Below the pieces are notes generated by a model. That model was not told the DNA's origin, did no database searches, and saw nothing but the letters and a program-made list of their open reading frames with translations. From IMG/VR virus record IMGVR_UViG_3300045988_155187: DNA of 45,193 nucleotides. The stretch is one strand, 5' to 3'. Shown in pieces: positions 44,065 to 45,193 of the stretch. The stretch is from a virus. Each line of letters opens with the position of its first letter. The stretch's first letter is position 1. A program made the translations under genes and the position numbers.

Positions 44065-44529
44065 TTAAGCCTCGTTTACATATTTTAATAGTTTTTTACA
44101 TAGAGGAATTCCTATCAAAAACAGTAGCATACCGCTTATACCAACACTTAAAAAAGAATATAAAAAGGGAACATTTAAAACATATAATAGCTCTAGCCCT
44201 ACAAAAGTTCCGCTTAATAAAGCATAAATAATACTGTTTAAGTAAATATTCTTTACAACTTTAGCAAATACATAGAACTGTAGTATTTGAATGCAAGCAC
44301 CTGTTATAATATCGATTATTCCTAATGAACTTGACAAGTTAGCAACTATCACGCCAAGAATAAGACCTTTGGCCAATCTTTTATCTAATATGCCAAAAGG
44401 AAGCAGCAAGGTAGCTACTCTAAATTGAAGCGGTCCAAAGCTGACTGCGTTTAATGTATAACATAAAGTTACATATGCTGCACATATAATACTATTTAAA
44501 GCTATTCCCCTTATTTTTTTATTTTTCAT
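44065..44529 (-). CDS. queT: QueT-family queuosine-precursor transporter (ECF S-component-like)
   Basis: ORF track. Polytopic membrane protein. ..AAYVTLCYTLNAVSFGPLQFRVATLLLPF.. matches the remembered QueT consensus (..FGPIQFR..E.L..L). Confidence 0.7.
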   Translation of the reverse strand: MKNKKIRGIALNSIICAAYVTLCYTLNAVSFGPLQFRVATLLLPFGILDKRLAKGLILGVIVANLSSSLGIIDIITGACIQILQFYVFAKVVKNIYLNSIIYALLSGTFVGLELLYVLNVPFLYSFLSVGISGMLLFLIGIPLCKKLLKYVNEA

Positions 44530-45193
44530 AAAGTCCTCCTTTTATTTTTTGGAAAGTACACCATATTTCCATATTGTGATCATCTATTATTTTTAAATCT
44601 TTAATTCTTTTGCCACTTCTTTTTAGTTTTTTTGAATATATACATCCATTTTTTAAATAATACGAAGTACCAAATCTACTCCCACTACAAACCGAACTAC
44701 TATCAACAGTATCGAATTTAACAGTTGGATTATTTAGATTTTTTAACCTTGTATATCCCAAACCGTGAATTTTAGCTCCACAACTATGTGCTATGCTAAT
44801 CATTTGGTTTAAAATCTTCTCATTTTTAACCCATTTACATTCTTGAGTTAATCCACTAGCACCAATTGCAACATAGTTATAGTCTTTACACATCTCTCTC
44901 CACCTTTTTAAACCTAAACATTTATGAAAAACTGGTATGCTTTTTTTATTTGTTCTTGCTTCTAAATAAGCTGTCATTTTATATGTTTCTTCAATCCCGA
45001 TAATTGTATAAAGATCCAGCTCAAAGAAATATTTGATATCATATTTATTAATAAAATCAATATAACTGTCTAAATATGATTTTATATCTTCGTTTTTATT
45101 GGAATTCATAAAAGTAAATGCTCCACTGTCCAACAAAAACATTTTGCAATCTTCACTTAGATAGTATTTCATTAATTCTTCTTTTCTAGAAAA
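44519..45193 (-). CDS. dpdA: DpdA-like (tRNA-guanine-transglycosylase superfamily) DNA transglycosylase; 3' 225 codons, with the 5' end at 160..56
   Basis: FLLDSGAFTF (compare TGT DSGGFQ, the catalytic Asp) and KFDTVDSSS (compare TGT ..D.FD.., the second Asp). Full ORF is 259 aa across the junction. Overlaps queT by 11 nt. Confidence 0.6.
   Translation of the reverse strand, partial: FSRKEELMKYYLSEDCKMFLLDSGAFTFMNSNKNEDIKSYLDSYIDFINKYDIKYFFELDLYTIIGIEETYKMTAYLEARTNKKSIPVFHKCLGLKRWREMCKDYNYVAIGASGLTQECKWVKNEKILNQMISIAHSCGAKIHGLGYTRLKNLNNPTVKFDTVDSSSVCSGSRFGTSYYLKNGCIYSKKLKRSGKRIKDLKIIDDHNMEIWCTFQKIKGGLYEK
45139..45193. repeat. Terminal 55-bp copy identical to 1..55
   Basis: Direct comparison of the two ends. 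Confidence 0.95.

Follow-up and report, generated by a model that had tools for sequence, protein, structure and literature searches.

A predicted ParB_N, DpdA and QueT cassette for 7-deazaguanine modification of DNA in a temperate gut phage

7-Deazaguanine modification of DNA is an established anti-restriction strategy. Phage DpdA enzymes swap guanine in DNA for preQ0/preQ1-type bases and so protect it against restriction. How a phage that encodes DpdA obtains this base if it has no preQ0 pathway of its own has been a question since 2019. Salvage of host or external precursors was proposed for such 'DpdA-only' phages (e.g., Mycobacterium phage Orion and Salmonella phage 7-11; Hutinet et al. 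2019, PMC6884629). The same question is raised by the 45,193-nt IMG/VR virus record IMGVR_UViG_3300045988_155187 (the whole stretch of DNA analysed, referred to here as the window), which like these phages has a DpdA-type gene without a preQ0 pathway. An original prediction from the sequence described a DpdA-like transglycosylase and a QueT transporter upstream of the terminase genes and proposed that the phage modifies its DNA by precursor salvage.

Genome ends and gene organization

The two ends of the window are an exact 55-bp duplicate of each other (Table 1). Assembly of a circular or circularly permuted genome leaves a terminal repeat of this kind, and the stretch is a circularly permuted phage contig. 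The repeat cuts the DpdA-like gene in two across the window ends: the ORF listing shows it as 44519-45172 only (217 aa, beginning at an internal Met, in a frame that runs off the window end). When the duplicate is removed and the ends are joined, a single 259-aa minus-strand ORF results, with its start at 160 and its stop at 44519 (160→1/45138→44519). The ORF with DSG.F and FD.VDSS motifs that had originally been described is thereby reconstituted, with DSGAF at residues 57-61 and FDTVDSSS at residues 195-202. Residues 1-259 are contiguous at 99-100% identity in six independent IMG/VR contigs and one MAG contig (contiguous copies of 100% identity are found at loci L004 and L058-L062). Because these seven other contigs encode the protein unbroken, the join is independent of assumed circularity. 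The DpdA homologues align from residue 1, and M1 and G7 are nearly invariant. The ORFs first reported at this locus are real, but the span assigned to them left out the N-terminal 42 codons of the DpdA-like gene (56-160) and the ParB_N gene (157-669).

Table 1. Positions of the cassette genes, the adjoining terminase genes and the terminal repeat in the window
Feature	Position	Strand	Basis
Terminal direct repeat, 55 bp	1..55		Identical to 45139-45193
ParB_N-like protein, 170 aa	157..669	-	Pfam PF02195, phrog_620, phrog_498
DpdA-like gene, 5' part, codons 1-35, start ATG 160-158	56..160	-	End-joining; homologues align from residue 1
DpdA-like DNA-guanine transglycosylase gene (predicted), 3' part, stop 44519	44519..45193	-	phrog_887, hhalign to 9g DpdA, fold
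QueT, 154 aa; substrate-binding (S) component (ECF type) for queuosine precursors	44065..44529	-	Pfam PF06177
Putative small terminase subunit (terS), 163 aa	43523..44014	-	Position and size only
Large terminase subunit (terL), 467 aa	42190..43593	-	Terminase_6N (E-value: 7.4e-13); weaker Terminase_6C

All genes of the cassette lie on the minus strand, as do terS and terL. The ParB_N gene ends in a 4-nt overlap with the start of DpdA (stop/start ATGA), and the DpdA and QueT ORFs share 11 nt (44519-44529). A gap of 50 nt separates QueT from the putative terS, which is directly upstream of terL and overlaps it. A terminator scan found no minus-strand terminator-like site between QueT and terS, and in a promoter scan promoter-like sites were no more frequent than the shuffle expectation (at or below it). 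QueT and DpdA are confirmed as members of a gene string leading into terS and terL. The putative terS product has no Pfam domain and belongs to phrog_2412 (annotated function: none known; E-value: 6.1e-23). The genome encodes a serine recombinase and a repressor module; the phage is a temperate siphovirus, and the cassette heads its packaging/structural gene string. No close named relative was found among 50,697 phage genomes: a megablast search with the 5-kb region hit terL of Psychrobacillus phage PVJ1 in part and nothing else, and tblastn returned only 6 records.

The DpdA-like protein and its ParB_N partner

The 259-aa protein belongs to phrog_887 (E-value: 1.5e-44), as does the experimentally validated DpdA of phage 9g (E-value: 2e-98). 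In hhalign, an alignment of its family (48 sequences) matches phage 9g gp03 over 186 columns (probability 98.1, E-value: 7.8e-14), and the motifs LDSGAF, PxFH, HGxG and DSSS(W) line up with those of 9g DpdA. Conservation was counted over 48 homologues at 43-65% identity. In these, the DSGAF and FDTVDSSS motifs are invariant or nearly so, and D57, F61, D95, H125, L180 and D199 are invariant; the motifs that contain D57 and D199 are aligned with DSGAF and CDSSS of 9g DpdA. As judged by sequence alignment, D57, F61, D95, L180 and D199 have the same order and spacing as residues D95, F99, D130, L236 and D256 of bacterial DpdA (PMC10164549).

The AF2 model of the protein is a confident TIM barrel, or (beta/alpha)8 fold (pLDDT 93.1, pTM 0.90). 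Its best three fold matches in the PDB are to Z. mobilis TGT (E-values: 6.5e-6 to 3.5e-5; query-normalised TM 0.60-0.63), although even the lowest of these E-values is modest and generic TIM barrels follow close behind TGT. The best fold matches in BFVD are phage queuine tRNA-ribosyltransferase/DpdA proteins, including those of nt-1 (DpdA2) and phiST (DpdA3). The protein has no match in Pfam (including TGT, PF01702), NCBIfam or the PADLOC DpdA models. As 9g DpdA is likewise without a PADLOC match, phage DpdA1-type proteins fall outside such models. Searches of all PDB sequences with phmmer and with the family profile (hmmsearch) returned nothing meaningful. In hhalign, the family is insignificantly related to E. 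coli Tgt (probability 0.9%, with the DSGxF region alone aligned), and the alignment gives no direct sequence linkage to tRNA TGT.

A TGT family match is missing from Pfam, but kinship is seen in the hhalign alignment with 9g DpdA and in the TGT-like fold. The phrog shared with 9g DpdA, the hhalign result, the TGT proteins at the top of the PDB fold matches and the invariant Asp pair uphold the identification of the protein as TGT/DpdA-like. Its homology supports a place in the DpdA1-type lineage of DNA-guanine transglycosylases, and base exchange activity is predicted. Clustered at 50% identity, the DpdA family has 4,791 representatives.

The ParB_N protein has the conserved domain PF02195 (31 bits; cut-off 26.3) and matches phrog_620 (E-value: 2.9e-49) and phrog_498 (DNA methyltransferase, N-terminal part; E-value: 6.5e-40). 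In PADLOC its best match, to the Type II MTase (MTase_II) model, is confined to the N-terminal ParB region, and no DpdB model is matched. At 170 aa it is without the C-terminal helical (SspE-like) domain of DpdB. Its GxxR..A box (G48, R51, A54), conserved in 80% or more of the 111 partners, is of the canonical ParB type, whereas DpdB has DGQQR. Its length and the missing PADLOC match led to its rejection as DpdB proper. By analogy it may be called DpdB-like in its working, with a possible coupling of activities, but not a member of the DpdB family.

In 70 of 72 clusters the ParB_N gene is the immediate upstream, same-strand neighbour of DpdA, and in 40 it abuts or overlaps DpdA. A close relative, P0004, is a natural in-frame ParB_N-DpdA fusion with the linker AGGGRNS; its ParB part shows 63% identity by BLASTP. 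Of all partners of DpdA, the ParB_N protein is the most constant one, and the original prediction had missed it. Both genes of the two-gene 'transporter-plus-inserter' module first proposed are present, but ParB_N makes it a three-gene module. Genes for ParB-like proteins of this kind often adjoin terminase genes, and part of the ParB_N-DpdA adjacency could be positional.

The ParB gene might on these grounds be an unrelated packaging or partition neighbour, and the TGT-like protein might modify host tRNA during infection rather than DNA; its fold and active site are common to tRNA-guanine transglycosylases, and the phage carries a tRNA. This is highly improbable. The closest characterised relative, 9g DpdA, acts on DNA (PMC6884629). 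With 259 aa against about 375, the protein is without the C-terminal zinc and tRNA-binding regions of TGT, and inspection of its sequence revealed no CxCxxC motif. The phage-encoded tRNA is Ser(GCU), which does not have a GUN anticodon. DpdA is accompanied by the DNA-binding ParB_N protein in nearly all clusters and fused to it in one case, and the DpdC-like proteins encoded beside it in some relatives act on DNA. tRNA was rejected as the enzyme's target on the strength of the kinship with 9g DpdA, the missing tRNA-binding regions and the ParB_N coupling.

With DNA as the predicted substrate, the pair can be compared with two known arrangements. The bacterial DpdA-DpdB-DpdC system (Salmonella Montevideo; PMC10164549) likewise combines a TGT-family enzyme with a ParB-fold protein and has the same proposed catalytic Asp pair. 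The window differs in that its DpdA and ParB proteins miss the PADLOC DpdA/DpdB models, in its ParB box, in having no restriction operon (dpdD-K) and in the predicted modification of phage rather than host DNA. ParB_N domains (ParBc, PF02195) are also fused or adjacent to phage DNA-modifying enzymes such as Type II MTases and CmoX (PMC12783734). The ParB protein of the window resembles these in its match to the N-terminal part of MTase-fusion models and in its place just upstream of a predicted DNA-modifying enzyme, close to terS and terL, but the partner in the window is a predicted base-exchanging transglycosylase and not a methyl or carboxymethyl transferase. The pairing of ParB_N with a DpdA-type transglycosylase was unreported in the literature searched, outside which falls the 2024 MMBR review (PMC10966956).

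QueT and the supply of the base

QueT imports queuosine precursors. The 154-aa protein of the window matches Pfam PF06177 with 89.1 bits (cut-off 33.7; E-value: 4.4e-25), and its residues 9-147 span profile positions 1-139 of 141. This E-value, like that of the phrog_887 match of the DpdA-like protein, lies far outside what chance would give. FGPLQFR is found at residues 31-37, the G..QFRVA motif is conserved, and hydrophobic blocks at about residues 6-30, 52-88 and 99-151 mark a small polytopic membrane protein. It belongs to phrog_27044 (annotated 'unknown function'; E-value: 1.9e-23). The polytopic ORF that overlaps DpdA was thus correctly named QueT. Like QueT of S. mutans and S. pneumoniae (PMC12632869, PMC11130926), it is a full-length, polytopic PF06177 protein with the QFRVA motif. 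Unlike these, it is phage-encoded, overlaps DpdA and is without a preQ1 riboswitch or a tgt/queF context; an Rfam search of the window found no such riboswitch, with the tRNA as the sole match. It presumably feeds DNA rather than tRNA modification. No ABC ATPase, EcfT-like or other ECF A/T component gene was found in the 45-kb window, and the EcfA/A'/T module would therefore have to be the host's. Most QueT-type loci fall in bins of Clostridia and Erysipelotrichia, which is in keeping with a host-supplied module but does not prove one.

Pfam searches of all called ORFs found no QueC, QueD, QueE, FolE, QueF or YhhQ gene in the 45 kb. Phage-derived HMMs for QueC, QueD, QueE, FolE and Vut_1 found nothing in any of the six-frame stop-to-stop segments at E-values up to 10. 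The absence of folE/queD/queE/queC/queF-like genes, first noted by eye, agrees with these searches. A 3.4-kb MAG contig of 100% identity is binned to Thomasclavelia spiroformis, and the GC content of the window is about 31-33%. T. spiroformis is probably the host, on the evidence of that one 3.4-kb contig. Rodionov 2019 (Table S1) gives C. spiroforme DSM 1552 a score of Q = 0, and on this prediction from the genome of a single strain the likely host species is a queuosine non-producer. As the phage has no preQ0 pathway and the likely host is a predicted non-producer, no source of the base other than import is evident.

DpdA1 of Enterobacteria phage 9g (gp03) and other Queuovirinae inserts preQ0 or G+. 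The 9g enzyme shares with the window enzyme its phrog, a TIM-barrel TGT-like fold and adjoining supply genes, although the window enzyme is only 23% identical to it and shorter (259 versus 317 aa). In 9g, DpdA lies among FolE, QueD, QueE and Gat-QueC in the replication module and has no ParB partner, whereas the window phage has no pathway but carries QueT and a ParB_N partner that looks obligatory, immediately ahead of terS and terL. Phage-encoded YhhQ has been described in CAjan and Seuratvirus, and in EC151 (PMC7544227, PMC8310023). In CAjan and EC151 it is found alongside a full pathway, whereas in the window the ECF S-component QueT takes the place of the pathway. Salvage by DpdA-only phages and phage YhhQ are already in the literature (PMC6884629, PMC7544227), and the idea itself is not new.

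The relatives of the cassette comprise 137 loci, with 83 evaluable 90%-identity clusters of the DpdA family. A deazaguanine supply gene adjoins DpdA in 80 of the 83: Vut_1/YhhQ in 32, de novo preQ0 genes (QueC/D/E/FolE) in 32, QueT in 10 and a mixture of transporter and pathway genes in 6. Many of the loci come from the same habitats, and these counts are not phylogenetically independent. A transporter and the pathway rarely occur together in the family and nearly exclude each other. The supply slot after DpdA, in which QueT, YhhQ and the preQ0 pathway are interchangeable, is near-obligatory in the lineage. This slot, which is almost never empty, and the predicted non-producer status of the likely host favour the salvage reading that was originally put forward.

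The precursor that feeds DpdA could instead be made by the host, with QueT as an auxiliary booster or as a lysogenic-conversion gene for tRNA queuosine salvage. The phage is temperate, six clusters combine a transporter with pathway genes, and modification in CAjan persists without the phage YhhQ (PMC7544227), such that a transporter can be auxiliary. Against this, no queuosine production is predicted for the likely host. QueT, whose ORF overlaps that of DpdA at the stop codon, is placed in the late gene string beside terS, outside the lysogeny module, and the near exclusivity of transporter and pathway is what would be expected if each were the sole supply. Host-made precursor is accordingly judged improbable, and import through QueT remains the preferred source.

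The product of QueC is preQ0, DpdC acts on dPreQ0, and YhhQ is a preQ0/preQ1 importer in E. coli. The pathway versions of the cassette end at QueC; the 40 unclassified neighbouring ORFs of 31 dereplicated biosynthetic clusters included no QueF. A DpdC-like DUF6884 gene follows DpdA in 8 clusters. The end of the pathway at QueC and the DUF6884 neighbours indicate preQ0 chemistry. One relative's module, that of phiFN37, contains a DpdC-like DUF6884 protein and YhhQ and mirrors bacterial dpdABC plus yhhQ. The same enzyme and transporter might nevertheless insert preQ1, queuine or another 7-deazapurine, giving dPreQ1 or a derivative. The specificities of QueT/QrtT proteins differ: S. mutans QueT salvages preQ0 and preQ1 (PMC12632869), and C. 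difficile QrtTs salvage preQ1, queuine or queuosine (PMC11130926, PMC12632869). In a second QueT-linked lineage, of Faecalibacterium-type prophages, a SAM methyltransferase lies between DpdA and QueT and recalls the preQ1 methyltransferase DpdM (PMC10516641). In view of the preQ0 end point, the DpdC-like neighbours and the use of YhhQ as the commonest alternative supply, insertion of a preQ1-type base is a possibility to be taken seriously but rather unlikely.

It is also conceivable that the cassette is without function or relevance here, whether because it is a decaying remnant or because the phage S-component is not accepted by the ECF module of the host. The use of a host ECF module, which is deduced from the gene content of the window, leaves some room for this. 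It is very unlikely all the same: the three ORFs are intact with tight overlaps, the catalytic residues are invariant in the 48 homologues, near-identical copies occur in at least seven independent contigs, and the 4,791 cluster representatives of the family indicate purifying selection.

Proposed model and its implications

It is probable, on balance, that an imported 7-deazaguanine replaces guanine in the DNA of this phage by means of the ParB_N, DpdA and QueT cassette and allows it to escape restriction; the modification is a prediction. The steps would be the following. QueT, a solitary ECF S-component, would insert in the host membrane and borrow the shared EcfA/A'/T module of the host. 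It would bring in a 7-deazaguanine, as the free base, from the surroundings in the gut, most likely preQ0 and possibly preQ1. The minimal DpdA would then swap guanine for the imported base in double-stranded phage DNA after replication, with D57 (DSGAF) as the putative general acid/base and D199 (VDSSS) as the putative nucleophile. The translationally coupled ParB_N protein may deliver DpdA to the DNA or activate it there, a role modelled on the ParB-fold ATPase DpdB that works with bacterial DpdA; the ParB_N domains fused to phage methyltransferases presumably act alike. The modified DNA would be packaged by the terminase encoded just downstream and would resist host restriction systems.

A broader generalisation is put forward more tentatively, at somewhat less than even confidence: that gut phages contain a very large and hitherto undescribed lineage of minimal (about 250 aa) DpdA enzymes, each with a small ParB_N protein as obligate partner in a phage equivalent of bacterial DpdA-DpdB, a plug-in slot for QueT, YhhQ or a pathway, and an S-component that borrows the host ECF module.

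For the DpdA-only phages, this locus and its relatives offer a testable answer to the question of the base source, in a large gut-phage lineage: a phage QueT or YhhQ would import the base as a one-for-one substitute for the biosynthetic pathway. QueT also provides a function for phrog_27044. The ParB_N protein, as a constant partner, would extend the DpdA-DpdB principle to phages, and the locus is a tractable model for the widespread ParB domains on phage DNA-modifying enzymes. Phages of this kind are expected to resist restriction digestion, and their modified DNA would be relevant to the analysis of gut viromes. If the broader generalisation holds, a phage of a queuosine-auxotrophic host could cloak its DNA with a 7-deazaguanine that the rest of the gut community produces, and the protection of phage DNA would be tied to the cross-feeding of queuosine precursors in the gut.

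Organization of the cassette and its genome

The genes of interest are all encoded on the minus strand of the window. Bases 1-55 are a copy of 45139-45193, indicating a circularly permuted phage contig. When the 55-bp duplicate is removed and the ends are joined, the DpdA-like ORF becomes a single ORF of 259 aa with its start at position 160. This joining is independently confirmed by seven contigs (six from IMG/VR and one from a MAG; 99-100% identity) that encode residues 1-259 without a break. The original prediction, in which the 259-aa ORF overlaps a membrane protein ORF and both lead into terS and terL, agrees with the resulting map: the two ORFs share 11 nt, and QueT is followed by a putative terS and then terL. 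The QueT-terS gap is 50 nt, with no minus-strand terminator-like site. The motifs on which the prediction was based are also present (DSGAF at residues 57-61 and FDTVDSSS at 195-202 of the 259-aa protein, and FGPLQFR in the membrane protein). A ParB_N gene that the prediction did not mention lies upstream, its stop codon overlapping the start of the 259-aa ORF (ATGA).

The gene string running from the 124-aa ORF immediately 5' of the ParB gene through DpdA and QueT to terS starts just past a tRNA-Ser(GCU) and its hairpin. Enterobacter phage EC151, which has a deazaguanine pathway, also encodes tRNA-Ser(GCT) (PMC8310023), probably a coincidence.

The phage is a temperate siphovirus, with genes for lysogeny (serine recombinase, cI/Cro-type repressor module and antirepressor), DNA metabolism (RecT/YqaJ, SSB, RusA and dUTPase), lysis (CHAP-SH3 lysin and holin) and structure (SPP1-type portal and tape-measure protein). 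Based on their domains, three further proteins are candidates for other functions: the minor head protein may be a virion-delivered toxin/effector fusion, the 467-aa DUF4041 protein may act for the prophage in defence or as a nuclease, and the Prp homologue is probably the capsid-maturation protease for this phage type.

Features of the window and of two related loci
Feature	Coordinates	Strand	Remarks
QueT ORF, 154 aa	44065-44529	-	ORF listing
DpdA-like ORF, 3' part	44519-45172	-	ORF listing; runs off window end
ParB_N protein, 170 aa	157-669	-	Upstream of 259-aa ORF
Putative terS, 163 aa		-	Downstream of QueT; assigned by position only; phrog_2412
terL		-	After putative terS; Terminase_6N
124-aa ORF	771-1145	-	HELIH (HExxH-like) motif; no Pfam match
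tRNA-Ser(GCU)	1213-1303	-	Followed by hairpin
Terminator-like hairpin and T-run	1183-1199	-	
467-aa protein	17252-18655	+	DUF4041 and T5orf172/MUG113 (GIY-YIG-like); lysogeny region, upstream of serine recombinase
Serine recombinase	19433-20965		
Prp homologue (ribosomal-processing cysteine protease)	38122-38427	-	PF04327, E-value 4e-17; adjoins scaffold gene (DUF4355)
Minor head protein	39276-40682	-	Phage_Mu_F, E-value 1.1e-18; C-terminal ADP-ribosyltransferase exoenzyme domain PF03496, E-value 3.4e-9
ParB_N-DpdA fusion (P0004)	8001-9311		L003, close relative (Logan SRR23883169 contig)
ParB, DpdA, DUF6884, Vut_1/YhhQ	5519-7828		L001, Fusobacterium phage phiFN37 (OR492271)

The DpdA-like protein and its ParB_N partner

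The 259-aa protein has no match in Pfam, NCBIfam or PADLOC, nor among PDB sequences, even when a family profile is used. It belongs to phrog_887 (queuine tRNA-ribosyltransferase; E-value: 1.5e-44), as does phage 9g DpdA, which has been validated by experiment (E-value: 2e-98). In an hhalign comparison of a 48-sequence family alignment with 9g DpdA (probability 98.1%, E-value: 7.8e-14, 186 columns), the motifs LLDSGAF, PVFH, HGLGYT and VDSSS pair with FLDSGAF, PCFH, HGFGIT and CDSSS, respectively. For the AlphaFold model (pLDDT 93.1, pTM 0.90), the best three PDB fold matches are Z. mobilis tRNA-guanine transglycosylase (E-values: 6.5e-6 to 3.5e-5, TM ~0.6), followed by generic TIM barrels. A viral structure library yields phage queuine tRNA-ribosyltransferase/DpdA proteins, among them Actinobacteriophage "DpdA-only" proteins, DpdA2 of Vibrio phage nt-1 and DpdA3 of Cellulophaga phage phiST. 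Homologues at 43-65% identity keep residues D57, F61, D95, H125, L180 and D199 without exception. Mutation of D95 (general acid/base), F99, D130, L236 or D256 (nucleophile) abolishes the activity of bacterial DpdA, in which the order and spacing of the active-site residues are the same (PMC10164549). Unlike TGT, the 259-aa protein is far shorter and, on inspection, has no CxCxxC zinc motif; its direct alignment with E. coli Tgt is not significant. Shared phrog, profile alignment, TGT-like fold and invariant active site bear out the predicted TGT/DpdA assignment, and the protein very probably belongs to the DpdA family. This family is large, with 3,611 matches in a 90%-identity clustered collection and, in a full HMM scan, 4,791 representatives of 50%-identity clusters (E-value ≤ 0.001).

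Collapsing DpdA sequences from related loci at 90% identity leaves 72 clusters evaluable for this neighbour. In 70 of them, regardless of supply type, ParB_N is encoded directly upstream in the same orientation; in 40 clusters it adjoins or overlaps the start of DpdA. These partners retain the nucleotide-binding box of ParB, GxxR..A. In one close relative the two proteins are fused in frame (P0004; 436 aa, linker AGGGRNS), the halves being 63% and 81% identical to the window proteins. The fusion gene is followed by QueT and then by a Terminase_3-type terL, so the cassette has been transferred among phages whose packaging modules differ. Assignment of the ParB_N protein to DpdB was rejected, as PADLOC gives no DpdB match and the 170-aa protein lacks the DpdB C-terminal domain. 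In PADLOC the ParB_N protein matches Type II methyltransferase models, and only in their N-terminal ParB domain; it is thus of the kind often attached to phage DNA-modifying enzymes (PMC12783734). Bacterial DpdA needs the ParB-fold ATPase DpdB for preQ0 insertion (PMC10164549); the parallel with it would be one of function rather than of family membership.

Supply genes for 7-deazaguanine

The 154-aa protein is identified as QueT, as predicted: its PF06177 score of 89.1 bits exceeds the gathering threshold (33.7), and the match spans 139 of 141 profile positions. QueT binds the substrate for an ECF transporter and requires an EcfAA'T module. The window protein has a polytopic hydrophobic profile, its G..QFRVA motif is conserved across a set of 27 distinct QueT sequences from phages and prophages, and PHROG 27044, to which it belongs, carries the annotation "unknown function". 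No riboswitch is found 5' of the gene. QueT of S. mutans salvages both preQ0 and preQ1 (PMC12632869), and specificity varies among other family members (PMC11130926).

The predicted absence of folE, queD, queE and queC as well as queF was upheld in two scans. Pfam searches of all 71 called ORFs of the de-duplicated genome, singly or concatenated, detect no QueC, PTPS/QueD, radical-SAM QueE, GTP cyclohydrolase I, QueF or Vut_1/YhhQ, and no ECF A or T component. HMMs built on loci from related phages for QueC, QueD, QueE, FolE and Vut_1 give nothing at E-value ≤ 10 in 367 six-frame stop-to-stop segments of at least 40 aa, a procedure that strongly recovers QueT, ParB and DpdA.

Related loci (137: 54 genomes/MAGs, 80 of 459 IMG/VR matches and 3 others) place supply genes beside DpdA. 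Among the first three genes downstream at 53 loci, Pfam (seeds verified) detects Vut_1 (YhhQ) at 21, QueC at 16, PTPS (QueD) at 12, QueT at 11, Radical SAM (QueE) at 10 and GTP cyclohydrolase I at 3. With local HMMs applied to all loci, the 83 evaluable 90%-identity clusters have adjacent YhhQ (32), preQ0 pathway genes (32), QueT (10), YhhQ plus pathway (5), QueT plus a QueC-like gene (1) or none of these (3). Overall, 96% of clusters have a supply gene, and transporter and pathway all but exclude each other. By association, this is strong evidence that the DpdA family handles 7-deazaguanine. Transporter plus inserter is thus a common design and not an oddity.

A second QueT-linked lineage occurs in Faecalibacterium-type prophages (L015, L017, L020, L116-L135; region ~0 to 1.6 kb after DpdA). 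The order is ParB, DpdA, SAM-dependent methyltransferase (288 aa), a conserved 137-aa protein (also in some YhhQ loci) and QueT. By comparison with the preQ1 methyltransferase DpdM (PMC10516641), this methyltransferase could further modify the inserted base.

The window cassette, for which DNA modification is predicted, is not categorically new. Transporters and ParB both go unmentioned in the 2023 DpdA subfamily paper; the literature searched yielded no description of a phage QueT, of a transporter regularly replacing the pathway or of ParB_N-DpdA pairing. Reliance on host preQ0 or uptake was suggested for 76 DpdA-only phages, and YhhQ was noted in some phages "with no correlation" (Hutinet et al. 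2019, PMC6884629). Phages CAjan and EC151 carry YhhQ alongside a full pathway (PMC7544227, PMC8310023), and ΔyhhQ CAjan is still modified (PMC7544227).

The predicted base and a proposed model

No QueF is found among 40 unclassified neighbour ORFs from 31 dereplicated biosynthetic clusters, and in eight clusters, including that of phiFN37, DpdA is followed by a DUF6884 protein that matches PADLOC DpdC models; DUF6884 is the DpdC family (PMC11888242). Both observations point to preQ0, which we give an even chance of being the specific base inserted; for the QueT subgroup, preQ1 is a possible base. In the isolated phage phiFN37 (DUF6884 against PADLOC DpdC, E-value: 7e-9), the locus amounts to a small-scale dpdABC set plus transporter, which predicts dADG in the phage DNA; two more ParB-like genes and a PAPS reductase also occur in the genome. 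Genes flanking preQ0-pathway loci (A3 members, e.g. L012-L110) encode one DUF5591 (ArcS-like) and two phosphoribosyltransferase-domain proteins, a hint of further base derivatisation in some pathway-type relatives.

A contig at 100% identity is binned to Thomasclavelia spiroformis, a host that fits the window GC content (31-33%) and Firmicutes-type lysis genes. Clostridium spiroforme DSM 1552 is a predicted non-producer (Q = 0; Rodionov et al. 2019, PMC6593275, Table S1); if this holds, preQ0 cannot come from the host, and no source of the base other than import is evident. QueT-type loci are binned mostly to Clostridia and Erysipelotrichia, and those of Bacteroidota and Negativicutes mostly have the pathway, a split that fits reliance on a shared ECF module of the host but is weak evidence, since phage contigs are binned unreliably. 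Bins in unexpected taxa include L042 (Archaeoglobus MAG), L039 (Gastranaerophilales) and L045 (Barnesiella); judged by DpdA identity, the latter two belong with Faecalibacterium prophages, which suggests mis-binning of phage contigs in at least some of these cases.

The model that we propose begins with import of preQ0 (or preQ1) by QueT through the host ECF module. Once the phage DNA is replicated, DpdA, loaded onto or activated on it by ParB_N, would exchange guanine there, D199 serving as the nucleophile and D57 as the acid/base. Import by QueT coupled to base exchange by DpdA with ParB_N is the likely overall explanation of the cassette; the modified DNA would be packaged by the adjacent terminase and would resist restriction.
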